Of a stretch of 52,908 bases of DNA, positions 6,360 to 27,835 are shown in pieces (position 1 is the first letter of the stretch; each line of letters starts with the position of its first letter). The notes beneath the pieces were generated by a model. That model saw only the letters and a list, made by a program, of their open reading frames with translations. It was not told the DNA's origin and did not search any database. Origin of the DNA: a virus; IMG/VR virus record IMGVR_UViG_3300013426_000006; one strand, written 5' to 3'. The translations under genes and the position numbers were made by a program.

Positions 6360-6728
6360 ATGAAAGATATTGAGGAGATTAAGAAAACACTTTCCTACGT
6401 GAAGAAAATCGGCATCAACGCGTACAGCGCAGAAATCACGCTTGGGAAGTATAAGGGCAGCGTTGTTTTTTCTAACAATGAAAGAGGTTATGAACACGTA
6501 AGTTTCTGTCCGTACAACGGTAGATTGCCGGATTGGAATGCGATGTGCAAGCTGAAAGATATGTTTTTTGATGATGAAGAGGAAGCATACCAGATTATGC
6601 CGAAGAAGAGCGAATATGTAAACATAGTTGATAATTGCTTGCACTTATGGAGACCACACAACGGATTGGAACTTGGGCTTTTGGCAGCCATTAAGCAAGG
6701 GAAAGTAATAATTGATAATTGGAGGTAA
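6360..6728 (+). CDS. hypothetical protein
   Basis: AAGGAG upstream; operon context. Confidence 0.55.
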   Translation: MKDIEEIKKTLSYVKKIGINAYSAEITLGKYKGSVVFSNNERGYEHVSFCPYNGRLPDWNAMCKLKDMFFDDEEEAYQIMPKKSEYVNIVDNCLHLWRPHNGLELGLLAAIKQGKVIIDNWR

Positions 6729-6733
6729 TATCT

Positions 6734-7159
6734 ATGAACATGGTAATTTTATCCGGCAGACTTGTTAGAGACCCGGAAATTCGGTATGGAAGCGGTGCAG
6801 AACCGATGTGCATTGCTAAGTTTTCATTGGCGGTTGACAAGAATTATAAGAAGAACGCCGACGACAAGGCGAATTTCATCAACTGTACCGCATTCGGTAA
6901 GACAGGCGAAGTTGTCGAGAAGCATTGCACAAAGGGAACTAAGTTGATTGTTACAGGCGAATGGACGACAGGAAGCTACAAGAACAAGGATGGCAATACG
7001 GTATATACCAACGACTGCAATATCTCGAAGTTGGAGTTTGCGGAGAGCAAGGGCTCGTCGCGTGGTGGTTCACAGGATGCACCAGAACCGATGCCTTCTG
7101 ATGCGGGATTTATGGATATTCCGACAAGCGGAATCGGTAACGACTTGCCATTTAAGTAG
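6734..7159 (+). CDS. ssb: single-stranded DNA-binding protein
   Basis: MNMVILSGRLVRDPEIRYG OB-fold N-terminus. Gly/Ser-rich linker and acidic tail ending DLPFK. GGAGG lies 8 nt upstream. Confidence 0.9.
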   Translation: MNMVILSGRLVRDPEIRYGSGAEPMCIAKFSLAVDKNYKKNADDKANFINCTAFGKTGEVVEKHCTKGTKLIVTGEWTTGSYKNKDGNTVYTNDCNISKLEFAESKGSSRGGSQDAPEPMPSDAGFMDIPTSGIGNDLPFK

Positions 7160-7254
7160 GAGTTGATTGCATGATAACAATGATTTTTGAATTAAGAAAG
7201 GAATAACGAATCCTCGGTAAACCGAGGTTGTATCAAGATTAGAATGGTGAATTG

Positions 7255-8013
7255 ATGCGTGGTGTTATGACAAAAAGAAAACTAAAAGTATGTTGGGTAA
7301 GTGCTGGAATATCAAGTTTTATGGCTGGATATTTTGCAAAAGATGTAGACGAATGGATTTACATTGATATATCAGACCAGCATCCGGATAGTTTGAGATT
7401 TATTAAGGATTGTGAGAGAGCAATCGGGAAAGAGATACAGATATTGCAATCAAAGGAATATCGAAGTGTTGAAGAGTGTGTAAGGGCGTTCGGTGGTTTT
7501 AGGAATCCCGGAAATGGATTTGCACCTTGCACAAATTGGCTGAAAAAGAGAGTTCGTAAGGAGTGGGAAGAACAACACAGGGATTGTGAATTGACTTACG
7601 TTTGGGGATTTGACTTGAAAGAGAAGAATCGAGCCGAGAGGACAATCGAAGCTAACCCACAGGCAAAACATGAATTTCCACTTATTGACAAAGGACTTTC
7701 TAAAGAAGAGGTACATGGATTGTTTGAACGAACTTTTGATTTTGCCCGACCAAAAATGTATGAAATGGGTTATCCGAATAATAATTGCCTTGGCTGTGTG
7801 AAAGCGGGCATGGGTTATTGGAATAGGATTCGTAAGGATTTCCCGGAAGTATTTGATAACAGAGCAAAATTGGAGCGATTGGTCGGACATTCGATACTCA
7901 AGGACAGTAAAGGAAATCCGATATACCTTGACGAGTTAGACCCAAACAGAGGGAACATGAATACCGAAATATTCCCGGATTGCGGAATAATGTGTTATTT
8001 GAACATGAATTAG
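7255..8013 (+). CDS. PAPS-reductase/adenine-nucleotide alpha-hydrolase-like protein
   Basis: N-terminal WVSAGISS (PP-loop-like), APCTNWLKKR and LGCVKAG cysteine motifs. Start is ambiguous (7252 TTG, 7255 or 7267 ATG). Confidence 0.45.
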   Translation: MRGVMTKRKLKVCWVSAGISSFMAGYFAKDVDEWIYIDISDQHPDSLRFIKDCERAIGKEIQILQSKEYRSVEECVRAFGGFRNPGNGFAPCTNWLKKRVRKEWEEQHRDCELTYVWGFDLKEKNRAERTIEANPQAKHEFPLIDKGLSKEEVHGLFERTFDFARPKMYEMGYPNNNCLGCVKAGMGYWNRIRKDFPEVFDNRAKLERLVGHSILKDSKGNPIYLDELDPNRGNMNTEIFPDCGIMCYLNMN

Positions 8014-8054
8014 ATGTGAGTGGTGGGCGGTAGGGATAAAGGAGAGTGAAAAAT

Positions 8055-8213
8055 GTGGTAAATAATGATGAACATAATCAGTACAATCAAGGTGTGGACG
8101 ACATTGTGCAAGCAATCAAAGACCTTGTAAGTGAAAATCCAACAGATTGCTTTGCACAGATTGTATCTGATTTAGACCAGATAGCAAGCGACTTAAAGGA
8201 GTGTGAGACATAA
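8055..8213 (+). CDS. small hypothetical protein (52 aa; below the ORF-track cutoff)
   Basis: GGAGAG lies 8 nt upstream of GTG 8055. Acidic ORF ending TAA 8211-8213. Confidence 0.35.
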   Translation: MVNNDEHNQYNQGVDDIVQAIKDLVSENPTDCFAQIVSDLDQIASDLKECET

Positions 8214-8284
8214 GTGGCTACAAATTACAGAAGGTTAAAAGCTATCGAAAAAAGAACGTCTTTTAAGGAATCGAGGTGTAAATA

Positions 8285-8815
8285 ATGATATTACTTGAAG
8301 ATACAAGAAATCAAGTCGGAAAACACGACTTGAAAAACGAGTATTTCCAAAATAACGGAATAGAGGTTCGGAGAACGAAACTTTATTGCGGAGATTACAC
8401 ATTGCCGACAGACCAAAGTATATGTATAGACACGAAAAAGGACATACAGGAACTTATAGGGGACATATGCGGTAAATCTCACGAAAGGTTCAGGAATGAG
8501 CTTTTAAGGGCAAAAGAAAGCAACATCAAACTAATCATACTTACAGAAGATGATGGCGGATATTGCGACAGGAAGAAAACAATATACAACAAACCTGTAA
8601 AATGCGTAAATGATTTGTTCGGATGGAAAAACCCAAGATTGTTTATATGGCAAGGTGGAAAACAAAAATATCCAAAAGCGACAAAAGGGCAGACGTTAGC
8701 AAAGTGTCTTATTACACTTCAAGAGAAATATGGTTGCGAATTTAAGTTTACAACAAAGAAAAATAGCGGTTCTGAAATTATAAAGCTGCTTAATACTGAA
8801 AAATATGACGGTTGA
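8285..8815 (+). CDS. ERCC4/XPF-Mus81-like nuclease (possible junction resolvase)
   Basis: GDY...ICIDTKKDIQELIGDI resembles the GDY...ERK...D ERCC4 core. Confidence 0.5.
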   Translation: MILLEDTRNQVGKHDLKNEYFQNNGIEVRRTKLYCGDYTLPTDQSICIDTKKDIQELIGDICGKSHERFRNELLRAKESNIKLIILTEDDGGYCDRKKTIYNKPVKCVNDLFGWKNPRLFIWQGGKQKYPKATKGQTLAKCLITLQEKYGCEFKFTTKKNSGSEIIKLLNTEKYDG

Positions 8816-8881
8816 TGAAGAAATGCATAGGCTTGCAGAAACAGTATGAGAAGTTTATGCACTTGATAAATGAGGAAAATT

Positions 8882-9799
8882 ATGAGAATCGGACTGATTG
8901 ATGTTGATGGACACAACTTCCCCAATTTGCCTTTGATGAAACTTTCTGCTTATCATAAATCGCTTGGAGATAGTGTTGAATGGTACGAACCAATGTTTAG
9001 CGGTCATATGGATAGAGTTTATATGAGCAAAGTTTTTACATTTACTTCTGATTATGAGTATTGTATTGACGCAGACGAAATTATCAAAGGCGGGACAGGA
9101 TATTCTTATCCAGATGGCGGTAAACCATTAGCTGATGAGATAGAGCATATATACCCTGACTATTCTATCTATTATGAGAAATTACCGATGTCAAAAGACA
9201 CTGCTTATGGTTTTCTTACAAGAGGTTGCCCTAGAGGTTGCGATTTTTGCATAGTAGGGGAAAAGGAGGGGAGATGTTCTGTAAAAGTTGCCGATCTGTC
9301 GGAGTTTTGGAGAGGGCAGAAGAATATAGTTCTGCTAGATCCGAATATGTTTGCTTGCAAAGAGTGGAAAGATTTAAGCCAACAACTAATTGATAGCAAT
9401 GCTTGGGTTGATTTTTCGCAGGGCTGTGACATAAGAATTATGACCGATGAAAAAACGGAATATCTAAAGCAAATAAAAATAAAACAGATACATTTTGCTT
9501 GGGATAGGTACGAAGATAAAGATATTATCGTGCCTAAGTTTAAGAGGTTCGCCGAATTAACAGGGTGGAAATATTGGAAAATGACAGTTTATTGCTTGTG
9601 TAATTTTAACACAACTTTTGAACAGGATTTAGAAAGAATATATACACTTCGTGATCTTGGCTATTCGCCATATGTGATGCTTTATGAAAAAGAGAAGATT
9701 CCTCCCGGTCATAAACTAAGACAGTTACAGCGATATGCAAATAGCCGATGGATTTTTAGAAGCTGTGATAACTTTGAAGATTATAAGAAGAAACAATGA
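8882..9799 (+). CDS. radical SAM protein
   Basis: CPRGCDFC (CxxxCxxC) cluster. GAGG lies 6 nt upstream of ATG 8882. Confidence 0.7.
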   Translation: MRIGLIDVDGHNFPNLPLMKLSAYHKSLGDSVEWYEPMFSGHMDRVYMSKVFTFTSDYEYCIDADEIIKGGTGYSYPDGGKPLADEIEHIYPDYSIYYEKLPMSKDTAYGFLTRGCPRGCDFCIVGEKEGRCSVKVADLSEFWRGQKNIVLLDPNMFACKEWKDLSQQLIDSNAWVDFSQGCDIRIMTDEKTEYLKQIKIKQIHFAWDRYEDKDIIVPKFKRFAELTGWKYWKMTVYCLCNFNTTFEQDLERIYTLRDLGYSPYVMLYEKEKIPPGHKLRQLQRYANSRWIFRSCDNFEDYKKKQ

Positions 9800-9825
9800 G
9801 AAATTTATGGATTTATTGAAAGTGG

Positions 9826-10128
9826 GTGAAGATAATGTTAGTTCCGAAAGTTGATGCGAAAGAGTTTGAAAAATTTGGATTTAAGAAGTGCAAGGGTGAA
9901 TATGGCAAGAACGGTTGCTATTACCTTTGCGTTTCGAGAGGTATAAAGCTTCTTTTTGTAAGCGATGTGCATTTTGATGTTATGAATTGGAGAGACGATG
10001 ATCCGCGTATTCATAAAGATGCAAATTGCCGTTACAGAGATAACAGAACATACCTTGATATTATCTATGATCTTATCAAGGCGGATATGCTTATGAGTGA
10101 TTGCGTGAAAGTAGGTGATGCAGAATGA
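9826..10128 (+). CDS. hypothetical protein
   Basis: ORF in operon; start uncertain (GTG 9826 or ATG 9835). Confidence 0.5.
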   Translation: MKIMLVPKVDAKEFEKFGFKKCKGEYGKNGCYYLCVSRGIKLLFVSDVHFDVMNWRDDDPRIHKDANCRYRDNRTYLDIIYDLIKADMLMSDCVKVGDAE

Positions 10129-10340
10129 AAAGAAGTGAATGTATAGAAGTATTAGACCACTTAAAAGAAAAATTGCAAAAAAAAGAAATAATTGCTATAC
10201 AGGATAATGAAGACGATTATATATGTCCTGTATGCGGTCAGATTTTTAAATCTGAAGATATTATTAGATATTGCTACAAGTGGTGTTATAACTGTGGTCA
10301 GAGAGTGGAATTTATTCTTCCAAGAAAGAAACAGATTTAA
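10125..10340 (+). CDS. hypothetical zinc-ribbon protein
   Basis: CPVCGQ...CYNCGQ. Confidence 0.55.
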   Translation: MKRSECIEVLDHLKEKLQKKEIIAIQDNEDDYICPVCGQIFKSEDIIRYCYKWCYNCGQRVEFILPRKKQI

Positions 10341-10403
10341 CTAAAAATTAAAGAAAGGAACAGGACGCGCGCATAAAACCTAGGTTTCCTTTTGGTAGAT
10401 TTT

Positions 10404-10766
10404 ATGGATTTTGAAAATTATTCTTGTGATAATCAGATGTCTATATTTGATTTTACAAGAGAACCGATTAGAATAACAAAACCTATTCGGTTGATTGAAC
10501 TTTTTGCCGGATATGGTAGTCAAGCAATGGCATTAAAAAGAATAGGTGCTAAATTTGAGCATTACAGGGTTGTGGAGTTTGATAAATATGCTATTGCAAG
10601 CTATAACGCAGTACACGGAACAGATTTTCCTACAATGGATATAACAAAGGTTCACGCAGAAGATTTGAATATTTGCGACACGGAAACCTTTACTTACTTA
10701 CTTACTTACTTACTCTTTTCCGTGTACGGACCTGTCTGTTGCCGGAAAACAAGCCGGGATGTCTAA
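10404..10766 (+). CDS. C5-cytosine DNA methyltransferase, N-terminal fragment (motif I); frame lost at (TTAC)6
   Basis: ELFAGYGSQAMAL (FxGxG). The out-of-frame tail FSVYGPVCCRKTSRDV follows the repeat. Confidence 0.8.
   Translation: MDFENYSCDNQMSIFDFTREPIRITKPIRLIELFAGYGSQAMALKRIGAKFEHYRVVEFDKYAIASYNAVHGTDFPTMDITKVHAEDLNICDTETFTYLLTYLLFSVYGPVCCRKTSRDV
10690..10714 (+). repeat. (TTAC)6 tetranucleotide tract inside the methyltransferase coding sequence
   Basis: Six perfect units at 10690-10713 immediately 5' of the FPC catalytic motif. Confidence 0.97.
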
Positions 10767-11466
10767 GGGCAGCGGTACACGATCAGGTCTGTTGTGGGAA
10801 GTTGAAAGAATACTAACCGAAATCAAAGATAGTGGTGGAGAATTACCACAAATATTATTCATGGAAAATGTACCACAGGTACATGGCAAGAAAAATATTG
10901 ATGATTTCAAGAAGTGGTTGGAATTTCTTGAAAGTTTAGGTTATACGAATTATTGGGATGATTTAAACGCTAAGAATTACGGAGTTGCACAGAACAGAAA
11001 CAGATGCTTTATGTTTTCGTTCTTAGGAAACTATTCATATAGTTTTCCGCACCCGATGCCACTTGAAAAGAAGTTAAAGGACTATCTGGAAGACAGTGTT
11101 GATGAAAAGTATTATATCAACAACGAAAAGGCTGAAAAACTGATAAAACAGCTTATTGACAATGGCACATTACCGAATACAATCCCTAAGAGCAGAGCAG
11201 AGCAGAGCAGAGCAGAGCAGAGCAGACTTGCGTTGACGGAACAATCAACGAACCACAGCAAAGAGAGATTGCAAACTGCATCAAGGCAAGATATGACGCT
11301 GGAATCTCAAACTTGCGGTCGGGCGGAAACCTTGTTGTTAAAAGGAATGGTTGATAAAGATATTGAACCAACGGCGTCAGTGATTGATGTTTCGACAACG
11401 ATTATGTCAAGAGACTATAAGGGATTGAATAATTACGGAACGAATGGAGTAATTGAATGGAAGTAG
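10759..11466 (+). CDS. C5-cytosine DNA methyltransferase, central fragment (PC-proximal, ENV, QxRxR and TRD-like segments)
   Basis: This frame extends upstream to TYSFPCTDLSVAGKQAG. Also GTRSGLLWEVERIL, FMENVPQV, AQNRNRCFM, TIMSRDYKG. Confidence 0.8.
   Translation: MSKGSGTRSGLLWEVERILTEIKDSGGELPQILFMENVPQVHGKKNIDDFKKWLEFLESLGYTNYWDDLNAKNYGVAQNRNRCFMFSFLGNYSYSFPHPMPLEKKLKDYLEDSVDEKYYINNEKAEKLIKQLIDNGTLPNTIPKSRAEQSRAEQSRLALTEQSTNHSKERLQTASRQDMTLESQTCGRAETLLLKGMVDKDIEPTASVIDVSTTIMSRDYKGLNNYGTNGVIEWK
11191..11226 (+). repeat. (AGCAG)7 pentanucleotide tract inside the methyltransferase locus
   Basis: Seven perfect units at 11191-11225. Confidence 0.97.
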
Positions 11467-11516
11467 TAGGAAGTATATACACAGGAGTTTCAGAGGGTTT
11501 TCAGCGCGGAATTATC

Positions 11517-11525
11517 GGGGGGGGG
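11517..11525 (+). repeat. G9 homopolymer inside the methyltransferase locus
   Basis: Nine consecutive G between the VVGSIYTGVSEGFQRG segment and the ISRCVKAETHD segment, which lie in different frames. Confidence 0.95.
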
Positions 11526-11571
11526 TATCTCCCGATGCGTGAAGGCTGAAACACACGATTTAGGAGTAGTT

Positions 11572-12183
11572 ATGGCAGAAATACAAGAAAAACGATTAGG
11601 TAATATATATTCTTTCGATGGCGGTAATTTTGCCGGGAATGTTTACGACAAAGAATGCATATCTCCCACATTAAAAACTATGCAGGGCGGAAATTCTCAA
11701 CCTATGGTGGTTGCCATGCGTGGAAGAAATCCAAACAACCCATCGGATAGAACCAAGGGAAGTCCAACAGAACAACGGTTAGAAGTGAATACGCAAGGCA
11801 CAAGTAATTGTTTGACAAGTGTGCAGAAAGATAATATGGTGTTGGAGAAACCTTTGTTATTAGGCGGAGTTGGTAAAGAAAACAAGTTTGGAAAACAGTA
11901 TAGGCAAGGGAATAGGGTGTATAGTTCTGATGCTTGCGCTATGGCATTAAACGCTCAACCTGTTGGGAATTCTGGTGGAAACTCATATTTATATAATGTC
12001 GGATATCGTATCAGAAAACTAACGCCTAGAGAATGTGGACGGCTGATGGGCGTATCTGATGAAGATATTGACAAAATGGCAGCGGTCAACAGTAACACAC
12101 AGTTGTACAAGCAATTTGGCAATAGCATAGTAGTTGATGTTATGTGCGCCATGTTTAAGAATTTGAACATTGAGCAGGAGTGA
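11572..12183 (+). CDS. C5-cytosine DNA methyltransferase, C-terminal fragment (TRD-like modules, motifs IX-X)
   Basis: ECISPTLKTMQGG, RKLTPRECGRLMG, YKQFGNSIVV. AGGAG lies 5 nt upstream of ATG 11572. The open frame reaches back to GTG 11539. Confidence 0.8.
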   Translation: MAEIQEKRLGNIYSFDGGNFAGNVYDKECISPTLKTMQGGNSQPMVVAMRGRNPNNPSDRTKGSPTEQRLEVNTQGTSNCLTSVQKDNMVLEKPLLLGGVGKENKFGKQYRQGNRVYSSDACAMALNAQPVGNSGGNSYLYNVGYRIRKLTPRECGRLMGVSDEDIDKMAAVNSNTQLYKQFGNSIVVDVMCAMFKNLNIEQE

Positions 12184-12187
12184 TTAA

Positions 12188-12394
12188 ATGGTTAAACCAC
12201 TAGCGCCGTGCATGAATTGTTCTGATAGGCATATCGGTTGCCATGGTATATGTGACAAGTATAGGGCATATACAGAGGCGCATGAGGAACTTAAAGCGAG
12301 TATTCGACAACAGAAGTTTGTACATAATTCTATAAAAGATATGCATAAGGAACAATGGGCACGGTATTCGAGAAATCGTCACAAAGAAAATTAG
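12188..12394 (+). CDS. hypothetical Cys-rich protein
   Basis: CMNCSDRHIGCHGIC. Confidence 0.5.
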   Translation: MVKPLAPCMNCSDRHIGCHGICDKYRAYTEAHEELKASIRQQKFVHNSIKDMHKEQWARYSRNRHKEN

Positions 12395-12402
12395 GAGTGT
12401 GA

Positions 12403-12807
12403 TTGAAAATGAGCAAAAGCAAAGAAGAGCAGGCAAGACGTGAGGGAATGTCTTATGCGCTTAGATACGCAAGAGAACATGGCTTAGATGCCTTAGAAGA
12501 GGATTTGAAGAAGCGTGGAGCGTATAACATACCTGTGCGGATTGATGATAAGGCATTGCAGGAGTTTACAGATAACGCCAAGAATATGATGCTTGACACG
12601 ATTCTGATTCTGGCATCGGTAACACTGCATGATGAATTTGGGTTCGGTAGAGAACGGCTAAATCGTTTTAAGAAGCGGTTTAATTTTAAGGCGGAGTGTA
12701 TCGGTGAAAACTATACCGATTGGAACGATCAGATATCAATATTAAAGGAAGAGTGCGGATTGGAGTATTCCATCCGCATGAACGAAAAGGATGCGAGGTT
12801 GAAATAA
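12403..12807 (+). CDS. hypothetical protein
   Basis: AGGAG at 12393. Start is TTG 12403 or ATG 12409. Confidence 0.55.
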   Translation: MKMSKSKEEQARREGMSYALRYAREHGLDALEEDLKKRGAYNIPVRIDDKALQEFTDNAKNMMLDTILILASVTLHDEFGFGRERLNRFKKRFNFKAECIGENYTDWNDQISILKEECGLEYSIRMNEKDARLK

Positions 12808-13040
12808 TGAATCACAGGAAGTGGAAAAAGGAATATAAAAAGCGGTACAGAATACGACCGATTATTTTCCTTGACAAGAAGCGGAAAGAAAAGGCTATGG
12901 CTATGATACGTGATTATATGTCACAGACTACTATCCGTATAACCGAGAATCAGTATTATTTGGAACTTGGGTGTTATTACAACGAGACTTCGATGGATAA
13001 CAGGAGAACAATGCTTAAAGTATGGGAAGGCGGTGTATAG
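12807..13040 (+). CDS. hypothetical protein (77 aa)
   Basis: ATG overlaps the upstream TAA (TAATG). The longer listed ORF 12720.. overlaps the previous gene. Confidence 0.5.
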   Translation: MNHRKWKKEYKKRYRIRPIIFLDKKRKEKAMAMIRDYMSQTTIRITENQYYLELGCYYNETSMDNRRTMLKVWEGGV

Positions 13041-13041
13041 A

Positions 13042-13239
13042 ATGGCAATGGCGACTTACGAAGAAGTGTGCAAGATGGGGTACTATAGTGCGATTGACGA
13101 TGTCATGAACATGCTTAACGATATAAAATTTGGCGGCGGTACAAAAGAAACACTTGCTTGCGCAAATGCGACACTTAACTACATCAAGGAGAAAGTAGAG
13201 AAACTAAGAAGTGGAGGCGTGGTAGATAATGACGATTGA
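13042..13239 (+). CDS. hypothetical protein (65 aa)
   Basis: ATG 13042 lies directly after the upstream stop. Confidence 0.5.
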   Translation: MAMATYEEVCKMGYYSAIDDVMNMLNDIKFGGGTKETLACANATLNYIKEKVEKLRSGGVVDNDD

Positions 13240-13525
13240 TGAAGCAATAGAAAATCTAAAACACGACTATTTGATATGCGAATATATAGATTATATAGCA
13301 CTACAGATTGCAGGATGGCTGGAAGAGTTGAAAGCATACAGAGAACAGCATCAGGCATTATGTGATGCATACGATGTAAACACAGTTGAAGATATTTACG
13401 ATAAAGCGATTGACGATTTTATCAAAGCGGTAGACAAACATTGTGGATATTATTCAGGAGAATGCAAAAATCTTACGCGTGATGATATTCTCGAAATTGC
13501 AAAGGAGTTGAAGGATAATGGTTAA
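13229..13525 (+). CDS. hypothetical protein
   Basis: Overlapping operon ORF. Confidence 0.5.
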   Translation: MTIDEAIENLKHDYLICEYIDYIALQIAGWLEELKAYREQHQALCDAYDVNTVEDIYDKAIDDFIKAVDKHCGYYSGECKNLTRDDILEIAKELKDNG

Positions 13526-13814
13526 GAAAATTAGGGTTTATATCAGCGGTCCGATCACAGGAACTGCGGATTACATGGAACGATTTGAAGAAGCTGAGAA
13601 ACGCTTAAATGGAGAATTCAGCGTTATCAATCCGGCAAAATTAAATTCAAATATGCCGGACGACACGACGCACGAAGAGTATATGAAGATGTCTATATGC
13701 ATGTTATCTATGTGCGATGCAATTTTCATGCTGAATGGATGGGAAGATAGCGTAGGGGCGTGCGAAGAAAACATTTATGCGTTGAAAAACGGCATGCGGA
13801 TTTTTAGGGAGTGA
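13518..13814 (+). CDS. DUF4406 / nucleoside 2-deoxyribosyltransferase-like protein
   Basis: VYISGPITG...CDAIFMLNGWEDSVGACEE pattern. Confidence 0.55.
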   Translation: MVKKIRVYISGPITGTADYMERFEEAEKRLNGEFSVINPAKLNSNMPDDTTHEEYMKMSICMLSMCDAIFMLNGWEDSVGACEENIYALKNGMRIFRE

Positions 13815-13821
13815 TTTATTT

Positions 13822-14625
13822 ATGGGAAACTTTGTAAAAATAGATCGGAAAATTCTTGAATGGGAATGGTGGGATAATTTCAACACATTTAGATTGTTTT
13901 TTTACATGCTTGTGTCTGCATATTGGAAAGACGGATATTACAAAGGAGAACTGATTGAGCGTGGTTCTTTTCCATCTTCCATATCAAAATTAGCATCAGA
14001 AACAGGCTTGACAGACAACGAAATTCGCAACGCGCTAAAGCACCTTAAAAGCACAGGCGAAATCACAAGCAAATCACATAGTAAATATAGCGTATTTACT
14101 ATAAAAAACTACAATTTGTATCAATCAGATAACAAACAAAAATGCGATGAAATCACAAGCACCGATGCAATCAAAATGCAATCAGATAACAAGCAGATAA
14201 CAAACCTTCCTATTATAAAAGAAGTAAAGAATATAAGAAGTAAAGAATATAAGAATAATATAGGGGCGAAAACGACCTATTACGAAGATCCTGATCTTAA
14301 TTCTGCGTTTGTTGAATTTTTGGATATGCGCAAGAAGATTAAAAAGCCGATTGCTACGAAACAGGCACTTACGCGGATGAAAAACAAGATTGAAAGATTG
14401 TCCGGCGGAGATACAAAGCTGGCAATTAAGATTTTGAATCAGTCGGTAGATCATTGCTGGTCGGATGTATATGAGCTTAAAAGTGATTATAGCAGCAAGC
14501 ATATACAGGATGCCGAAAAGGCTAAATCTGTAACCGATATGCAGTTGGAATCGCTTGCAGAGCGGCAGAGACAGAATGTAAAAATTATGAGTGACAAGGA
14601 AATAAATAAAATGTTTGGAGAGTGA
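13822..14625 (+). CDS. phage replisome organizer / DnaD-like replication initiation protein
   Basis: N-terminal FVKIDRKILEWEWW...RLFFYMLV winged-helix type. Followed by a DnaC-like loader downstream. Confidence 0.7.
   Translation: MGNFVKIDRKILEWEWWDNFNTFRLFFYMLVSAYWKDGYYKGELIERGSFPSSISKLASETGLTDNEIRNALKHLKSTGEITSKSHSKYSVFTIKNYNLYQSDNKQKCDEITSTDAIKMQSDNKQITNLPIIKEVKNIRSKEYKNNIGAKTTYYEDPDLNSAFVEFLDMRKKIKKPIATKQALTRMKNKIERLSGGDTKLAIKILNQSVDHCWSDVYELKSDYSSKHIQDAEKAKSVTDMQLESLAERQRQNVKIMSDKEINKMFGE
14059..14254 (+). repeat. cluster of direct repeats inside the replisome organizer gene (candidate origin)
   Basis: GAAATCACAAGC x2 (14059, 14149). CAGATAACAA x3 (14126, 14183, 14194). 16-nt tandem AGTAAAGAATATAAGA x2 (14223-14254). 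Confidence 0.6.
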
Positions 14626-14629
14626 TGAT

Positions 14630-15016
14630 ATGGAGAGATTGACGAAGAATAATAACGGAGACTACTATTATCCAGAATGCTTTGAAAAGTGCAGTGGAAA
14701 TGGAACATCTGAAAAGTGTAATGAATGCAGTTTTAATTATTTGATATGTAAAAAGCTTGGAGAGTATGAGGATTTAGAGGAGCAGGGCAGACTTATCAAG
14801 ATACCACTTGAAGCGTATTGTATTGTGGATTTTGAAGTACGAAAAGGGTTTGTGTTAGAAGCAGCATATCACATAAGCAGAAAACCTTTACTTGTAATTC
14901 GATATGATGATAGTTCGCTTAAAAGTCATAGTGGTTATTTAGGCATTTCAGTATTCCTCGCAAAATCCGAAGCAGAAGCAAAACTGAAAGAATTGAGAGG
15001 TGGAAAAAATGAGTGA
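14630..15016 (+). CDS. hypothetical protein
   Basis: GGAGAG lies 7 nt upstream of ATG 14630. Confidence 0.55.
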   Translation: MERLTKNNNGDYYYPECFEKCSGNGTSEKCNECSFNYLICKKLGEYEDLEEQGRLIKIPLEAYCIVDFEVRKGFVLEAAYHISRKPLLVIRYDDSSLKSHSGYLGISVFLAKSEAEAKLKELRGGKNE

Positions 15017-15377
15017 TAAACAGGGAAATCTTACAGATGAAGAAATAGAAGATTTACAAGGCATAGTAACTGATACATTGGCAAGCATATGTACTATGGC
15101 TGACAAGCACAATATCGATAGAGACAGTATGCTTAAATGCTTCACTGAAATGCTCACAGCTTTTACAGAAGTGGCAAGCATACAGAATTATGAAACAAAT
15201 GAGCATACTAATGCCGACAGGATAAGGAATATGTCGGATGAAGAGTTAGCAGATAGTTTAACAGCAACAGCAAAGTGTGACGAGTGTTTTGTTATAAAGG
15301 AACATGAACCTTATTGCCTTTCAGCTTCGGCTTGTAGGCAAAAACATCTTGAATGGCTTCAATCAGAAGCAGAATAG
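15009..15377 (+). CDS. hypothetical protein
   Basis: GAGAGGTGG upstream of ATG 15009. Confidence 0.55.
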   Translation: MSDKQGNLTDEEIEDLQGIVTDTLASICTMADKHNIDRDSMLKCFTEMLTAFTEVASIQNYETNEHTNADRIRNMSDEELADSLTATAKCDECFVIKEHEPYCLSASACRQKHLEWLQSEAE

Positions 15378-15385
15378 GAGGGAAT

Positions 15386-15793
15386 ATGGAAGATAGATAT
15401 TTATTCAAGGCAAAAAGAGTTGATAACGGAGAATGGGTTATAGGATTTCTCCATTGCAAAGATGATAAATGGTATATAAGTAACAAAGCAGGCTCACCGT
15501 TTGCATTTGAAGTAAAACCGGACACTATATGCCAATGTACAGGCTTGAAAGACAGGAATGGCAATCTGATTTGGGAGAATGATATTATGAAATTTGACAT
15601 ATATTATTATGAAAAATTGGAGAACAGTACAATATCGCAAATTAAATGGTGTAATGATTTATGTGCATTAAGTCTTGTAGTGAATGATAAAGGAACTAGA
15701 GGCACATTAGGTCATTTAATGGATTCAAACAAAGAAGTTGATGTTATCGGCAACATATTTGACAATCCAGAGTTATTAGAAAGTGAGGAATAA
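15386..15793 (+). CDS. YopX-family protein
   Basis: LFKAKRVDNGEWVIGF...CQCTGLKDRNGNLIWENDI...VIGNIFDNPELLE. Confidence 0.65.
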   Translation: MEDRYLFKAKRVDNGEWVIGFLHCKDDKWYISNKAGSPFAFEVKPDTICQCTGLKDRNGNLIWENDIMKFDIYYYEKLENSTISQIKWCNDLCALSLVVNDKGTRGTLGHLMDSNKEVDVIGNIFDNPELLESEE

Positions 15794-15794
15794 T

Positions 15795-16088
15795 ATGACA
15801 GAGAGTGAAGCGATTAAGGAACTTCAAGAAAACATTGACTTGCCATTTGGAAGTAATATATCCAAAGAAGCGGCAAAGCTGGCAATACAGGCACTTGAAA
15901 AACAGATACCGAAGAATCCAAGAAAAACAGATTCGTACAGAGGGGTATTAAAAAGAGTATATGCTTATGTATGCCCTACTTGTGGGAATGTATGTTTAGA
16001 AAAATACATGAATGAACGGCAGAATACAATGTTTTGTTGGAATTGCGGTCAAAAAATAGATTGGAGTGATGAATATGAGATTGATTGA
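15795..16088 (+). CDS. hypothetical zinc-ribbon protein
   Basis: CPTCGN...CWNCGQ. Confidence 0.5.
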   Translation: MTESEAIKELQENIDLPFGSNISKEAAKLAIQALEKQIPKNPRKTDSYRGVLKRVYAYVCPTCGNVCLEKYMNERQNTMFCWNCGQKIDWSDEYEID

Positions 16089-18406: not shown

Positions 18407-19606
18407 ATGGGAAAGGATTTAAAAGGCAAAGAATTAGGCAATGGAATTTCTCAAAGAAAAAATGGAAAATATTGTGCGAGATACATTGATAGATTTGGCA
18501 AAAGAGTAAGCATTTATGATAGCAAACTAACAGACATTCGTAAAAAGCTGGCTCTTGCTGTTGCCGAAAATGAAACATTTACAAGCATAAAGGATAACAT
18601 AAAACTTGATGAATGGTTTGTAAAATGGGTAGAAGTGTATAAAAAGAAAAGTGTGCGTCCTAGTACACTCAGGACGTACACATATATTTACAATAAAAAT
18701 ATATCACCTTTTCTTGGAAATTTCAACATTAATTCAATAACAAAAAGCGAAGTGCAAAATTTGATTTCTAAAGCTGATGACTTTGGATATGGTTATGAGC
18801 GGCAACAAAAGATTAAAAATATCTTATCAGATATGTTTTCAAGGGCTATGGATGATGAGCTTATGCTTAAAAATCCTGCAAGGAATGTAAAAATATACGC
18901 AAAAAAGAATCTAACTGCTAAATCACTTTCAAAAGACGAACAGGAAACCTTTTTTGAGTGTTCTGCAGGAACCTTTTACGACAATCTTTTTAATGTTGCT
19001 GTAAATACCGGATTAAGGCCAGGTGAATTATTTGCACTTACGGAAAATGATGTAAACTTTGAAGATAATTACATTGAAGTCAATAAGACACTTGTGTATC
19101 AAAAATATCTTGATGATGATTGCAAAACGTTTCATATAGGGCCACCTAAAACAGAACAAAGCAACAGAAAAGTGCCGATGAACTCGCAATGCAAAAAATA
19201 CATTCAAAAGCAAATTATGCAAAAGAAAGTTGTTGAATCAAAAAATCCTAATAGAAAAAGTCAATTTCTTTTTACAACTAAATTCAATACTCCACTTAAT
19301 TCTGTATTGTATAGTGCAGCAATCAAATCTGTTGTTGAAATTATTAACCAGACTAGAGATGCCAGCGATAGGATGGAAGTGTTTAACGGGCATACTTTTA
19401 GACACACTTTCGCAACAAGGTGTTTTGAATCAGGAGTGGAGCCTAAAGTAGTTCAATCATATTTAGGTCATGCAACATTAAGTATGACTATGGATTTATA
19501 TACTCATGTTATGCCTACAAAGTTAAATAATGACATTGAGCGTATTGTTTCCAAGTGTGATAACATTGTTGAATTTAGAAAAAAGCGTGGTGTAAGCGTG
19601 GTGTAA
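18407..19606 (+). CDS. int: tyrosine site-specific integrase
   Basis: RPGELFALT, HTFRHTFATRCFESGV, LGHATLSMTMDLYTHV (R..HxxR..Y). Confidence 0.92.
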   Translation: MGKDLKGKELGNGISQRKNGKYCARYIDRFGKRVSIYDSKLTDIRKKLALAVAENETFTSIKDNIKLDEWFVKWVEVYKKKSVRPSTLRTYTYIYNKNISPFLGNFNINSITKSEVQNLISKADDFGYGYERQQKIKNILSDMFSRAMDDELMLKNPARNVKIYAKKNLTAKSLSKDEQETFFECSAGTFYDNLFNVAVNTGLRPGELFALTENDVNFEDNYIEVNKTLVYQKYLDDDCKTFHIGPPKTEQSNRKVPMNSQCKKYIQKQIMQKKVVESKNPNRKSQFLFTTKFNTPLNSVLYSAAIKSVVEIINQTRDASDRMEVFNGHTFRHTFATRCFESGVEPKVVQSYLGHATLSMTMDLYTHVMPTKLNNDIERIVSKCDNIVEFRKKRGVSVV

Positions 19607-19965: not shown

Positions 19966-20124
19966 ATGTTTTCTGATGAAATTTTAACAAAAATTTTTTC
20001 AAGAAAAGAAATTCAAAAATTTGATTTGCAGACGCAATCAGAAATTGTCCATACGATAGAAGATGTTTTAGAGGAGGTCAATCAAAATGCAGATAAATCC
20101 GTATCAGATACCACAGGTGAATAA
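19966..20124 (+). CDS. small hypothetical protein (52 aa; below the ORF-track cutoff)
   Basis: AGGAGG lies 9 nt upstream of ATG 19966. Confidence 0.45.
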   Translation: MFSDEILTKIFSRKEIQKFDLQTQSEIVHTIEDVLEEVNQNADKSVSDTTGE

Positions 20125-20566
20125 TTATATGCCACAGTATCAATCATATCAACAGGCATATAACCCTATGCAGAACATTCAGAGGTTCCAGCAACCACAG
20201 CAAGAACAGATGCAACAGGGTATCTTTGGTAAAGTTGTGCAATCTCAAGATTCCATAGTAGCAAATGATGTACCTATGAATGGAAGTGTTGCATTTTTCC
20301 CTAAGAGCGACTTATCGGAGATTTATGCAAAACAATGGAGTGCAGACGGAACAATCTCTACAATGGTTTTTAAGCCACTTCAAAATGATAACCCTAACAA
20401 GTCATCACAAGACACAGAAAAATTGAAAATAGGGCTATCAGACGAAGCTACAGAGATATTTAACAAGCACTTCGATACCTTGTTTTCAAAAATAGAAGAA
20501 CTTGAAAAGAAAATCGACGAAAAATCTTTGACTAAGACTGCAAGAACAAAAGTTAGTCAAGAATAG
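20087..20566 (+). CDS. hypothetical protein with Q/N/Y/P-rich N-terminus
   Basis: GAGGAGG upstream. First 45 aa are dominated by Q, N, Y and P. Confidence 0.6.
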   Translation: MQINPYQIPQVNNYMPQYQSYQQAYNPMQNIQRFQQPQQEQMQQGIFGKVVQSQDSIVANDVPMNGSVAFFPKSDLSEIYAKQWSADGTISTMVFKPLQNDNPNKSSQDTEKLKIGLSDEATEIFNKHFDTLFSKIEELEKKIDEKSLTKTARTKVSQE

Positions 20567-20609
20567 TCTAAGAATAGTCTAAGAATAGTCTAAGAATAGT
20601 CTAAGAATA
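20554..20609 (+). repeat. 11-nt tandem repeat AAGAATAGTCT, about 4.6 copies
   Basis: Perfect units at 20559, 20570, 20581 and 20592, with partial units at both ends. The tract spans the upstream stop codon and the intergenic region. Confidence 0.95.
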
Positions 20610-22969: not shown

Positions 22970-23021
22970 TTTATATGGGCTATGGGTGTAATGCTCATAG
23001 CCTTATTTGAGGTATATAAAC

Positions 23022-23348
23022 ATGGTATTTACAATAAATGGAGAAAATTGGATATTGCAATTTGTACGTTCGAACAGTGAAGAATTGCGGCGGTCGGATG
23101 GCGTATATACATTAGGCGTTACCGACGACAATACTAAGACGGTTAGCATCGCAAGAGGTATGTCTGATTATATGACAAACAAGGTTCTATGCCATGAATT
23201 GGTGCATTGCTATTCGTTCTCTTACGACTGCCATATTGATATGCAGACAGAGGAAATAATAGCAGATTTTATGTCGCTATATGGCAGGGACATTATATAC
23301 CTTGCTGATGATATTTTACACAATGTATTGGAGAGAAGATATGGATAA
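23022..23348 (+). CDS. small HExxH metallopeptidase-like protein
   Basis: VLCHELVHCYSF. Confidence 0.45.
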   Translation: MVFTINGENWILQFVRSNSEELRRSDGVYTLGVTDDNTKTVSIARGMSDYMTNKVLCHELVHCYSFSYDCHIDMQTEEIIADFMSLYGRDIIYLADDILHNVLERRYG

Positions 23349-23496
23349 GATAGATGAAATTCTTGAATATGTGCGCCGGACAAACCCGGAAATGACACGT
23401 GATAAGTTGATAGAAGAATTAGGGAAGTGTGAGTATTCTGCAAGAGCTTTAATTTTTGGTTTTCAGAATGTTGTGGATGGTTCTACGAGGATTTGA
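23341..23496 (+). CDS. small hypothetical protein (51 aa)
   Basis: GGAGAG lies 6 nt upstream of ATG 23341. Overlaps the upstream stop. Confidence 0.4.
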   Translation: MDKIDEILEYVRRTNPEMTRDKLIEELGKCEYSARALIFGFQNVVDGSTRI

Positions 23497-23632
23497 TATC
23501 CCCCTATGTTACTTGAAATTACAGTGATTAAAGAAAAATAATTTTCAGAATTTTTTCAAAAAATTTTCGATTTTCTAAATTTTGCCCTGGCAGGATTTGA
23601 ACCCCCCCTATGTTTCCTAAATATTCCCACGA
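23488..23632. repeat. two copies of AGGATTTGA-N3-CCCCC-TATGTT, 104 nt apart; the second is preceded by TGCCCTGGC
   Basis: Copies at 23488-23510 and 23592-23614. The reverse complement of 23583-23608 reads GGTTCAAATCCTGCCAGGGCA, which looks like the T-loop-to-acceptor 3' end of a tRNA. Confidence 0.7.
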
Positions 23633-23699
23633 CCATCAAAAATTTTTTTCGCAGATTTCACACAGAAATTTCGCGATTTCACAATTTCAACGCCTGTTT

Positions 23700-23910
23700 T
23701 TCTGATCTTCCCCGGTCGGCTGATCTTGGGTGATCCATTCCGGGACCTGTGCGGCGTGTGCTGATCCTTTGCGCTGATCTATTGCGGATCGTCGGCATAT
23801 TGCACAAATGCCGGATAGATCGTTGCGCCTGTTTGGTCGTCCTGATCTTCCGCCATGCTCCGGTGATTAAATACCGGGCGCACTTGTCCGAGTGCCTTTC
23901 TGCTGATCTT
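23700..23910. other. GC-rich non-coding island with 9 GATC sites (6 as CTGATC[T/C])
   Basis: GATC at 23704, 23722, 23732, 23763, 23776, 23787, 23818, 23844 and 23905. No RBS-preceded ORF. Confidence 0.85.
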
Positions 23911-24297
23911 GGCCGGGCGTGGTTGCAGAATTTCAAAGCGTGCAAATTAAACACTGCCGCAAGCTAATTTCTGCGCGTGTGAACGCGTAGAACGCCAACA
24001 GAGCCACGCGCAAACCATACAAGGTATATAAATGCACCTGTAGATATAATTAAGGCTATAATATGCCTAGATTGTCAAATTGTCAAGGTACGCAAAAAGG
24101 GCAGTATATGCCCTATAAGAATTTCCGGCACTTGTCAATTACAGAAGTAATAGCTCCGGCTTTGCTGATTTTCAAAATATCTCTATTTTTTCATCGCGGA
24201 GAATCCGCAACCATTCCAGTAGATCGGCGCGACTATTCGCATAGTTTGCGCACTTTTCGCCGTCGTATATAATCATGTATATCATACTATCACCCCT

Positions 24298-24510
24298 TTA
24301 TTTAATATAAACCTCTTCAAGTTCTTCCAGATCGTCAACATGTACTATATAGCGTTTGATCTCTTTGTTTGTTGCTATATAGTTTTCCTTTGCCTGTGTT
24401 GGGTTCCGGAAAAGTGCTTCAACTTCGACCTTGCTTTTGCCGTCGTCCTGTGTCTTTCTGTCGATCATGTACACGATCGCCCATTTTGTGAATTTTGTAT
24501 AATCTTTCAT
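24298..24510 (-). CDS. hypothetical protein (70 aa)
   Basis: Minus-strand ORF with a divergent TTGACT-17-TATAGT promoter on the minus strand at 24550-24590. Confidence 0.5.
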   Translation of the reverse strand: MKDYTKFTKWAIVYMIDRKTQDDGKSKVEVEALFRNPTQAKENYIATNKEIKRYIVHVDDLEELEEVYIK

Positions 24511-24561
24511 ATTGTTGTCCTCGCTTTCGTTTTGCGTTGTTTCTTAACTTGCCTTTACTAT

Positions 24562-24579
24562 ATCGCTTTCAAAAGTGAT
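24562..24579. promoter_or_regulatory. operator-like palindrome ATCGCTTTCAAAAGTGAT
   Basis: Sits between the -35 and -10 of the minus-strand promoter. Related to the palindrome at 24933-24950. Confidence 0.45.
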
Positions 24580-24682
24580 AGTCAAGTGTTTTTGTAACTT
24601 TTTTTAGTTATTTTTCTTGACTTTTGCGGCAGCATATTATAATATAGTAACCAAATAAATAACTACGGAAGGAGGGTACAAG

Positions 24683-24919
24683 ATGATTAAGTATAAGATT
24701 GATGTAGGCGATGCTCTGGAACGTGTCGGATTTACAACGTACAGAGCCAAGACCACGGGACTGCTTAGCCAAGACACGTTAAGACGTATCAAGGAAGATG
24801 ATACTAACATTAGCATTAAGTCGCTTAACAGTCTTTGCCTGATACTCGACCTGCAGCCAAAAGACATCTTAATATACGAAGACACAGAGCAGGACAGGAA
24901 GCAAAGAGAAAAAATTTAA
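24683..24919 (+). CDS. XRE/Cro-type helix-turn-helix regulator
   Basis: GLLSQDTLRRIKEDDTNISIKSLNSLCLILDLQPKDIL. TTGACT-17-TAATAT promoter at 24617-24645. GGAGGG RBS. Confidence 0.6.
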   Translation: MIKYKIDVGDALERVGFTTYRAKTTGLLSQDTLRRIKEDDTNISIKSLNSLCLILDLQPKDILIYEDTEQDRKQREKI

Positions 24920-24932
24920 TTTTTTTAAAATT

Positions 24933-24966
24933 ATCACTTGACAAAGTGATATTAATGTGGTAACAT
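24933..24966 (+). promoter_or_regulatory. promoter (TTGACA-17-TAACAT) overlapped by palindrome ATCACTTGACAAAGTGAT
   Basis: -35 at 24938-24943, -10 at 24961-24966, inverted repeat at 24933-24950. Confidence 0.5.
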
Positions 24967-25015
24967 GTAATTACATTAAAGGAAAGGAACGCCGAATGGC
25001 GTAAGGTAAAATGAT

Positions 25016-25306
25016 ATGATAACAAGGACTGATGCAATTAATGTATTAATGAAGGACAGATGCACAATGAATGAGGCTAAACGCTTCTTGGACATGGGTA
25101 CAATCGTGTACGAAGCAGACGAGCTGGAGGAGCATATCGAGGACTACTGCTCCGAATGGTACGTGTGTGGCTATGGCTACGATGAAGAGGATGTTGTCGA
25201 AATGACAGAGAAAACCAAAGCGATGGTTAATGGCGGCGAGCTGCTACCGGACTGGAGCAAGGTTGAGTATGACGGCAAGACCTATTACATTGAGTATTGT
25301 AATTGA
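25016..25306 (+). CDS. hypothetical acidic protein
   Basis: ORF downstream of the promoter at 24938. Confidence 0.5.
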   Translation: MITRTDAINVLMKDRCTMNEAKRFLDMGTIVYEADELEEHIEDYCSEWYVCGYGYDEEDVVEMTEKTKAMVNGGELLPDWSKVEYDGKTYYIEYCN

Positions 25307-25335
25307 TTGACTTTTTTTAAAAAATCTTGTATAAT
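25307..25335 (+). promoter_or_regulatory. consensus-like sigma-A promoter TTGACT-17-TATAAT
   Basis: -35 at 25307-25312, -10 at 25330-25335. Confidence 0.65.
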
Positions 25336-25430
25336 GTAAAAAATAGCTTGTATTTAGTTGGTATATGCAGCGCGTCCGGAGCATGTACCAACCAAGCCAG
25401 GGCAAGAGGGCGCGTAGTATTTGAACGTTC

Positions 25431-25460
25431 GCCGGTTAGATCAGTCTAGCCGGCTTTTTT
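25431..25460 (+). terminator. rho-independent terminator ending a ~115-nt leader/small RNA
   Basis: GCCGGTTAGA-TCAG-TCTAGCCGGC followed by TTTTTT. Confidence 0.75.
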
Positions 25461-25503
25461 ATTTGCCAAAAGATCAGGACACAGCCAGAAGGGAGGGCGC
25501 AGC

Positions 25504-26142: not shown

Positions 26143-26568
26143 AAGCGTGCGTTTTATTTACAACGCAAGTTTGTTGGATTTTTTGTGAATTTTGCACATA
26201 AAAAAATGGTCCGGTTTAACTCTGGCGTGCTGCTTATAGGGGTATGGGGGTTAGACATGGTGCGCAAAATACTCCTACTAAGTTCCTCAAACATTTTTCA
26301 AAATAAAAAGTCCTATTATATATAATATAAATATATAAACCAATTACACATATAATAAATAAATTATATAAACGTAATGCATATATAAATATTATATAAA
26401 GGCTTTATAGATGACTGATAAATAGGTTTTTGATAAATAGAATTCGGATTTCTAAAAATTTTTCAAAAACAAAAAGGACGTGATTGAAGATTGAATAAAA
26501 GGCAAAATGGCACCTAGGGAAGTATATTGAATTGTCGGGAAAAAATAAAAAAGCCGCAAATCAGCGAC

Positions 26569-26715: not shown

Positions 26716-26857
26716 AATATGCACCTCCTACAAATGATGATAGCATATTAAAAGCAAAAAATCAAATACATTGTATTAAAATGTATTGAAACGTATTGAA
26801 AACAAATACTTTATATGTTATAATACTCATGTCAATTAAAAATAGGGGGGTAAGCAT

Positions 26858-27741: not shown

Positions 27742-27835
27742 TCACCTACACCCCCTATAAATGAATTGTTATCAATTTTAGTGGAATCCAGCCATGCGCA
27801 TTTTCGGATGTGCATACCGTCACAGGCGGTATTTC

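Follow-up and report, generated by a model that had tools for sequence, protein, structure and literature searches.

Length-variable repeat tracts in a split, multi-module C5-cytosine methyltransferase locus of a gut temperate phage suggest a phase-variable enzyme

The virus genome IMGVR_UViG_3300013426_000006 of the IMG/VR database, a stretch of 52,908 nucleotides (nt) analyzed here in full and hereafter called the window, carries at positions 10404-12183 a C5-cytosine methyltransferase locus distributed over more than one reading frame. The best reading of this locus, and in our judgment probably the correct one, is a multispecific phage C5-methylase that is split into two polypeptides and phase-variable through several repeat tracts. 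Three simple-sequence tracts lie at its frame junctions, as an initial annotation made from the sequence alone had noted: (TTAC)n immediately before the catalytic cysteine, (AGAGC)n at the boundary between the catalytic core and the variable region, and a run of G near the start of the second open reading frame (ORF). That annotation had left the choice between phase variation and inactivation by slippage; phase variation fits the comparisons reported below, whereas slippage-driven decay does not, since genomes with zero mismatches differ only in the length of their tracts.

The evidence for tract variability comes from assemblies of the same strain, which we retrieved through exact matches to the proteins of small genes next to the locus and to the protein fragments encoded in the window itself. 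The window, taken as the reference, has 6 TTAC units, 7 AGAGC units and G9. The contig ERZ808258 NODE_72 (5.7 kb) carries the same three lengths, and ERZ27300215, a MEGAHIT contig of 5.4 kb, has 6 TTAC units, 6 AGAGC units and G9. ERZ808272 NODE_62 (52.5 kb), aligned over window positions 6625-15894, has 5 TTAC units, at least 11 AGAGC units and G9, and the contigs of ERZ808263 (4.6-4.7 kb each) have 5 TTAC units, at least 11 AGAGC units and G10; SRR1747039, aligned over 6625-11218, has 5 TTAC units and ends within the AGAGC tract. All of these match the window with 0 mismatches. By locus, five TTAC units are found in L133/L139, L145 and L146 and six in L279 and L280, while L134, also with 0 mismatches, has G10 against the window's G9 at a coverage of only 3.7x. 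All three tracts vary in this set with zero substitutions over 5-9 kb, which is the signature expected of hypermutable contingency tracts. The initial annotation had named fixed breaks without tract-length heterogeneity as the observation that would speak against it, and the zero-mismatch genomes display the opposite.

The tracts are also exceptional within the window, where they constitute the sole tetranucleotide repeat of at least 4 copies, the sole pentanucleotide repeat and the sole G/C run of at least 8 in 52.9 kb; the numbers expected from Markov shuffles are 0, 0 and 0.045, respectively. The locus accordingly combines perfect tracts that are improbable by chance with whole-unit, frame-changing length differences between otherwise identical genomes. 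It is most improbable that these differences are sequencing or assembly artefacts concealing an intact gene. Repeats as long as the k-mer or longer do collapse in de Bruijn assemblies, several contigs end in (AGAGC)n at exactly k, and long G runs are error-prone, the G10 contig L134 being in addition thinly covered. However, the final k-mers given in the contig records exceed the lengths of the TTAC tract (21-25 nt) and of the AGAGC tract with 6-7 units (30-38 nt), TTAC6 was assembled independently by SPAdes (ERZ808258) and MEGAHIT (ERZ27300215), and the length changes are always exact multiples of the repeat unit, across hundreds of contigs. We also considered the contig ends inside (AGAGC)n as a sign of within-sample heterogeneity, but the repeats at these ends are exactly as long as the assembler k-mer, so that tract length alone accounts for them, and we dropped the idea.

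The family assignment is confirmed. All C5-methyltransferase motifs occur in canonical order across the locus, in two forward frames, and these motifs, (TTAC)6, the period-5 repeat, A4, TAG-TAG and G9 all lie where they had initially been placed (Table 1). PF00145 matches the three large fragments consecutively, over profile positions 2-61, 64-252 and 233-322 (E-values of 1.6e-8, 5.2e-36 and 1.1e-10, in that order), and the frame-repaired protein of 594 amino acids (aa) with E = 1.6e-59; the closest solved structures are those of M.MpeI and M.HhaI. The PF00145 search of the frames that the annotation had put forward thus succeeds for the large fragments and fails for the two short alternate-frame pieces, namely the target recognition domain (TRD) that we call TRD-A and the head of ORF2, which have no Pfam match. 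Such silence is expected and normal for recognition domains, and both pieces are in frame in relatives. Between motifs VIII and IX lie 5-6 recognition modules in tandem, each independently present or absent among homologues, and together with the profile matches this layout upholds the earlier description as a multi-TRD C5-methyltransferase. The accompanying claim that the modules resemble one another survives only as a short core, [AS]-x-[CT]-[ILV]-x-[AST], common to five of them; similarity over their full length was abandoned, a MAFFT alignment displaying no conserved column. The methylase lies in the replication/recombination module, has no nuclease partner there and is therefore an orphan. 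A megablast search of the locus against deposited phage genomes gave no match, and tblastn against deposited phage sequences recovered distant relatives only, the best with 48.6% identity (Dulem virus 39). In IMG/VR, by comparison, the core domain has 479 relatives, 80 of which were fetched for locus comparison.

The (TTAC)n tract occupies the TYLLTY codons immediately before the catalytic Pro-Cys, where intact homologues read F-TYLLTY-SFPC, a string that equals (TTAC)5 in the codon usage of the window. Five units join motif I to the PC motif in frame, whereas four or six separate them. Upstream of the PC motif, frame 1 contains no ATG, GTG or TTG, and its first start is the ATG at 10759. Because the sixth unit splits motif I from the PC motif and no start lies upstream, the window allele should yield no active enzyme: motif I and the catalytic Cys are not found in one translatable product, and in the same-strain TTAC5 alleles they are. 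From its tract state of TTAC6, AGAGC7 (frame B) and G9, the window allele is predicted to have the enzyme OFF and TRD-C, the first module of ORF2, OFF as well. Among the relatives scored, the spacing between motif I and PC is 210 nt, and hence in frame, in 65 of 75. The deviating spacings (202, 206 and 214 nt) all differ by multiples of 4 nt and, except in L062, occur only where the tract is perfect; they are almost absent from lineages whose tract is interrupted. Exact scans of IMG/VR recovered 24 contigs with extra TTAC units (21 with one and 3 with two) alongside at least 89 contigs with the in-frame length, while a strain-specific flank pattern around the tract gave 0 matches in JGI metagenome contigs.

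The pentanucleotide tract directly follows DNGTLP. The initial annotation treated it as a plain break and overlooked that it is a three-way frame selector. Where n = 0 mod 3 for (AGAGC)n, or n = 2 mod 3 for the (GACA)n that other relatives carry at the same place, translation would enter frame A and read TCVDGT..ANCIKARYDAGISNLRS.GN.VV (TRD-A), with a stop within a few codons. Where n = 1 mod 3 for either repeat, it would enter frame B and read LALTEQS..EKLQTASRQD..QTCGRTETLLLKG, then TRD-B (..ARDYKGLNNYGTNGVIEWK), with a stop at the start of ORF2. Frame C, reached with n = 2 mod 3 for (AGAGC)n and n = 0 mod 3 for (GACA)n, ends in an immediate stop after ..ADLR and has no recognition module. 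Relatives carry (AGAGC)3-13 or (GACA)3-18, neither of which can form a stop in any frame, and their outcomes (~32 A, ~24 B and ~11 C, among ~67) all follow n mod 3. The endings are conserved as well: the frame-C terminus ADLR or DLR, preceded by SR in the window, is kept in relatives with n = 5, 8 or 11, and the TRD-B terminus GVIEWK in ~24 relatives.

The DNA that encodes TRD-A in frame 0 encodes in frame 1 the linker LALTEQS..QTCGRAETLLLKG that leads into TRD-B, forming a dual-coding segment. P0033 and P0016 have TRD-A in frame, and P0025, P0018 and P0001 the linker; among these, single-chain homologues read TRD-A in frame (P0016) or the linker together with TRD-B (P0001 and P0018). Frame B is open across the TRD-A DNA in 46 of 48 distinct segments, whereas synonymous resampling of TRD-A with the codon usage of the window leaves it open in only 2.5%, and the third frame of the same DNA contains 3.8 stops on average. 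As both frames are open and both are read in single-chain homologues, both are maintained, whichever of them a genome currently uses. One of the only two exceptions to dual coding is L138 (ERZ26858477 NODE_87), which is 98.6% identical and carries a point stop in the frame-B linker (..QDMT, stop, ESQTC..); state B would be dead in this genome.

These observations bear on whether the locus is simply a methylase decaying by slippage, that is, a pseudogene in progress in which the tracts are accidental and the fragments junk. A pseudogene would naturally account for a window allele that cannot produce an enzyme uniting motif I with the catalytic Cys, and for a G tract that is out of frame in all same-strain genomes. 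We nevertheless consider decay very unlikely, given that the great majority of scored relatives are in frame at TTAC and that zero-mismatch siblings carry the in-frame TTAC5. The tracts, moreover, are long perfect repeats without a stop in any frame, and tracts of other motifs recur at the same site; the two overlapping frames have both been kept, and the modules of the window have accumulated neither stops nor non-repeat indels.

Returning to the proposed phase-variable enzyme, its second structural feature is the split. ORF1 (alpha) comprises motifs I-VIII and ORF2 (beta) comprises further TRDs and motifs IX-X, in adjacent ORFs. ORF1 stops before motif IX in all three frames, as it does in essentially all 80 relatives, so that the locus does not encode a single polypeptide; fused single-chain relatives exist in P0001, P0016 and P0018. 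The locus had initially been described as fragmented by five frame changes, but only three of these are slippage sites. The remaining two, at A4 and TAG-TAG, are constant: in 67 of 68 distinct relatives the TRD-B core is offset by +1 from the TRD-A core, and in 32 of 32 distinct sequences the ORF2 ATG is offset by +2 from the TRD-B core. Judged from these offsets, A4 and TAG-TAG are conserved architecture and not frameshift mutations, and the repairs once suggested for them (A3 for A4, or one extra base at TAG-TAG) would produce a layout that hardly any relative has. The suggestion that a ribosome-binding site and ATG at 11457 restart translation fares better. The ORF2 start string GGAGTRATTGAATGGAAGTA, including its GGAG, is conserved in 41 loci, the ORF2 of relatives begins with MEV(I/V/L)GS(I/V)YT at an ATG overlapping the ORF1 stop, and a Shine-Dalgarno sequence (SD) and ATG at fixed offset in all 32 distinct sequences would serve for such a restart. 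Neither A4 nor the ORF1/ORF2 overlap has a slippery heptamer, and both have ordinary stop and start signals, for which reason programmed ribosomal frameshifting at these sites was considered and rejected.

The G tract lies 20 codons into ORF2, and G9 ends the long form of this ORF after 30 codons. G8 or G11 would carry ORF2 through ISRCVKAETHDLGVV into its remainder, and with G8, TRD-C (..GISRCVKAETHDLGVV) would be joined to it. Among relatives, G5 and G8 are in frame and G6, G7, G9 and G10 out of frame; lineages in which GGTGTATATCCGATTGCAAG replaces the G tract are always in frame. The short ORF2, which gene callers predict in every same-strain contig, has its own internal SD and holds TRD-D (..CISPTLKTMQGG..), TRD-E (..TSNCLTSVQKDNMVLE), a further variable stretch and motifs IX and X. 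Transcriptional slippage, plausible only at G9, was set aside, as it does not explain differences at the DNA level. Some relatives have second and third G tracts deeper in the ORF2 modules. In L001, L002, L004, L005, L011 and L080, a second frame break falls in the module ..RIYDVGG/GGCSPTLSTMQGG, apparently at a G run, in the ORF2 region ~600-660 nt past the QNR motif; the same is seen in many IMG/VR relatives, and L011 has a third break. TRD-D of the window is without the G tract of this module.

A simpler account is plain ON/OFF phase variation with unchanged specificity, in which only one frame after the pentanucleotide tract works and the others, like the TTAC and G shifts, are null, on the pattern of classical phase-variable mod genes. 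The observed tract polymorphism and frame shifts agree with this account, and single-chain relatives bearing simple sequence repeats (SSRs), such as P0018, reach motifs IX-X only in frame B. We nonetheless think it unlikely. TRD-A stays intact, with frame B open across it, regardless of the state of the genome, TRD-A forms a module of working length in the single-chain P0016, and state A is the commonest (~32/67), which would be odd for a null allele. In addition, the conserved start of ORF2 itself frees motifs IX-X from the frame of ORF1.

Under the preferred reading of a multi-tract, split and multispecific enzyme, an orphan phage C5-methyltransferase would be built from two polypeptides whose composition is set by three hypermutable tracts. 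Alpha and beta would assemble into one enzyme, by analogy with M.AquI, and each TRD would add an independent target sequence, by analogy with the multispecific methylases of Bacillus phages. The (TTAC)n tract would act as the master ON/OFF switch, the length of (AGAGC)n modulo 3 would steer ribosomes to TRD-A, TRD-B or a stop, and G(n) would decide whether TRD-C joins the rest of beta. The ORF1 product without a TRD (state C) is presumably one of three alternative C-termini of alpha. Replication slippage could then generate subpopulations of phages or lysogens with different 5-methylcytosine (5mC) patterns or with none. A plausible benefit would be bet-hedging where some hosts have classical restriction systems and others have methylation-dependent nucleases, and in lysogens the methylase could act as a variable epigenetic regulator.

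Several observations count against this proposal. The six putative modules, aligned with MAFFT, have zero conserved columns, so that the modules resemble one another only weakly. The 48 dual-coding segments are kin sequences and not independent trials. Contigs that end inside (AGAGC)n stop at exactly the k-mer length (55 or 30 nt), which makes their unit counts lower bounds. Finally, the ~10 same-strain genomes all have G9 or G10, both of which are out of frame; TRD-C may be permanently off in this lineage, or long G runs may be partly miscalled.

Beyond the strain, the site after motif VIII has acquired a variety of repeats. At this position L097 has (AACAG)11, L098 has (AG)9, and L106 has (GAGCAGA)6 in addition to (TTAC)5 at the upstream site; loci of the Christensenellaceae type have G8-G12. 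That unrelated repeats occupy the same boundary suggests that mutability arose there repeatedly and independently. The isolate Anaerocaecibacter muris CLA-AA-M11 (L116, NZ_CALPCE010000006.1) has G10, G12 and G11 in the variable region of a related methylase. These tracts lie at about +214, +387 and +620 nt past the QNR motif, L114, L117, L118 and L127 are similar, and the isolate is a possible laboratory system for the switch. As to hosts, a 99.5%-identical stretch occurs in a contig binned to a Lachnospiraceae metagenome-assembled genome, and more distant relatives occur in Roseburia, Eubacterium, Lachnoclostridium, Christensenellaceae and Treponema assemblies.

The position of these repeats also admits a reading in which their main function is to act as recombination joints where phages exchange TRD cassettes, frame switching being a by-product. 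TRD content is strongly mosaic among relatives, the repeat lies exactly at the boundary of core and variable region, GGAGTARTT..ATGG is common to module boundaries, and P0010 fuses the repeat-encoded linker directly to a later module. This reading is compatible with phase variation; as the principal role of the repeats, however, we rate it as improbable, because homologous exchange would be impeded between lineages that carry unrelated repeat motifs at this site, and because it leaves unexplained both a TTAC tract within the conserved catalytic region and the dual-coding constraint. Generalizing from the phase-variable enzyme proposed for the window, we see as evenly poised the wider proposition that a combinatorial epigenetic switch is carried by temperate phages of gut Firmicutes, relatives of which occur in spirochaete assemblies. 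This switch would consist of a split multispecific C5-methylase with a master tract, a dual-coding TRD selector and poly-G gates, would offer many 5mC patterns per genotype, and would owe its mutability to repeated evolution with units of 4, 5, 7, 2 and 1 nt.

The elements of this proposal have precedents in separate systems. In M.AquI, the large subunit contains motifs I-VIII and the proximal variable region, and the small subunit the distal variable region and motifs IX-X, encoded by adjacent ORFs; M.EcoHK31I is another two-subunit C5-methyltransferase, and non-overlapping fragments of M.SssI, divided within the proximal variable region, complement one another (PMC3404938). The locus described here is likewise encoded by adjacent ORFs split inside the variable region, with their overlap kept in 32 of 32 relatives. 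Unlike M.AquI, which has one specificity and no repeat tracts, it carries exchangeable modules on both ORFs and three alternative C-termini of the large subunit. The Bacillus phage enzymes M.SPRI, M.Phi3TI, M.Rho11sI and M.H2I are multispecific C5-methyltransferases (Guenthert and Reiners 1987, Wilke et al. 1988 and Lange et al. 1991, listed among the references of PMC8936443). With them the locus has in common an orphan C5 core in a phage and serial short modules between motifs VIII and IX that are shuffled among relatives. It departs from them in comprising two ORFs, with modules in different frames whose use is set by tract length; the link to the SPR and phi3T methylases drawn by the initial annotation is therefore retained as an analogy of architecture, and does not extend to the split into two ORFs.

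Among SSR phase-variable methyltransferases are the Type III mod phasevarions, Type I hsdM/hsdS genes with repeats and the Type IIG cj0031 (PMC7383803, PMC4889913, PMC13076061). The present locus resembles these in its perfect intragenic tetra- or pentanucleotide or poly-G tracts, whose unit number varies between near-identical genomes and shifts the frame. The known examples, however, are chromosomal ON/OFF regulators in pathogens, mostly N6-adenine methylases with one tract, whereas here a phage C5 enzyme has three tracts, one of which picks between two recognition modules in overlapping frames. A 2026 review recognizes two routes only, namely ON/OFF switching and Type I hsdS recombination, with specificity change arising through hsdS recombination (PMC13076061). 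In Campylobacter phages, according to the account of Sorensen et al. 2021 cited in PMC12823448, hypermutable poly-G tracts occur in receptor-binding proteins. As far as that account goes, those phages and the one analyzed here are alike in having slippage-prone tracts in a phage genome for phenotypically mixed progeny, and differ in that the former have homopolymers in receptor-binding proteins, whereas in the latter the target is the phage's own DNA-modification enzyme and the repeats include tetra- and pentanucleotides. The full-text literature searched describes no phage-encoded phase-variable methylase, no phase-variable multispecific C5 enzyme and no repeat choosing between overlapping-frame recognition modules.

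If our interpretation is true, the locus would be a phage-encoded phase-variable methylase, suggesting that phages hedge their own anti-restriction methylation, since too little methylation invites classical restriction and wrong methylation invites methylation-dependent nucleases. It would also be a case in which specificity is changed by frame choice across a dual-coding segment, without recombination, and in which one enzyme contains several independent switches. This kind of locus is widespread, many of the 479 IMG/VR relatives of the core domain having tracts. Owing to the repeat-switched split layout, gene callers break these methylases into 'fragments' of 120-350 aa. Long reads place tract length and 5mC pattern on the same molecule.

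Table 1. Features of the methyltransferase locus and tRNA genes in the window (+, forward strand; coordinates of the whole stretch)
Feature	Coordinates	Strand	Description
ORF1 5' segment	10404..10766	+	Frame 0; contains motif I; continues past the 6-unit tract into out-of-frame LLFSVYGPVCCRKTSRDV and a stop
Motif I, ELFAGYGS	10497-10520	+	Frame 0
ORF1 frame-1 segment	10684..11466	+	PC, ENV, QNRNR, repeat linker, out-of-frame TRD-A DNA and TRD-B; stop TAG 11464-11466
(TTAC)6 tract	10690..10713	+	Predicted master ON/OFF switch
PC motif, TYSFPCTDLSVAGK	10708-10749	+	Frame 1
ENV motif, LFMENVPQV	10855-10881	+	ORF1 frame-1 segment
QNRNR	10990-11004	+	ORF1 frame-1 segment
(AGAGC)7.6 tract, equal to (GAGCA)7	11189..11226	+	Three-way frame selector after motif VIII
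TRD-A, TCVDGTINEPQQREIANCIKARYDAGISNLRSGGNLVVKRNG	11226..11354	+	Frame 0; stop TGA 11352-11354
Frame-C TGA stop	11234..11236	+	Ends ..SRADLR
A4	11340-11343	+	Conserved end of the TRD-A frame
TRD-B, GMVDKDIEPTASVIDVSTTIMSRDYKGLNNYGTNGVIEWK and stop	11344..11466	+	Frame 1; C-terminal module of ORF1 in state B
ORF2 SD GGAG (11446-11449) and ATG (11457-11459)	11446..11459	+	Overlaps the end of ORF1-B by 10 nt
ORF2 head / TRD-C with G9	11457..11549	+	MEVVGSIYTGVSEGFQRGIIGGG, then out of frame; stop TGA 11547-11549
TAG TAG	11464-11469	+	Overlap of ORF1 stop and ORF2 start
G9 tract	11517..11525	+	Predicted ON/OFF gate for TRD-C (long ORF2); OFF in the window
Short ORF2, 203 aa	11572..12183	+	Internal SD GGAG 11563-11566, ATG 11572, stop TGA 12181-12183
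Motif IX, RKLTPRECGRLMG	12013-12051	+	ORF2
Motif X, GNSIVV	12118-12135	+	ORF2
tRNA genes Gln, Ser, Tyr	27428-28261		

The window is the genome of a temperate gut (Lachnospiraceae) phage. It encodes an integrase (18407-19606) together with an anti-repressor, RecT, an SbcC-like protein, an ERCC4 nuclease and a DnaD-like loader. The genes just upstream of the methylase encode a PAPS-reductase-like protein (7252-8013), an ERCC4-type nuclease (8285-8815) and a radical-SAM protein (8870-9799); these three may represent another cluster for DNA modification or repair. Both ends of the window, at 1-692 and 52807-52908, carry the same 27-nt tandem repeat (25.6 and 3.8 copies, ~90% identical), and for this reason the genome is probably circular or circularly permuted, with the cut lying within the array. 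The array is in frame with an ORF entering from ~52480, in which it encodes ~30 copies of the 9-aa unit GASSATG(D/N)(Y/C); the mechanically predicted ORF at 28-717 reads it in another frame (ELPRQQVTx). About 1 kb downstream of the integrase, a perfect 11-nt direct repeat, (TAGTCTAAGAA)x5.2, spans 20554-20609 between the ORF at 20087-20566 and the gene that follows it, and could represent iterons or operator sites. The region 22970-26860 has few long ORFs and contains an AT-rich 33-nt repeat (26317-26396), (TA)6 at 25751 and other short tandem repeats.

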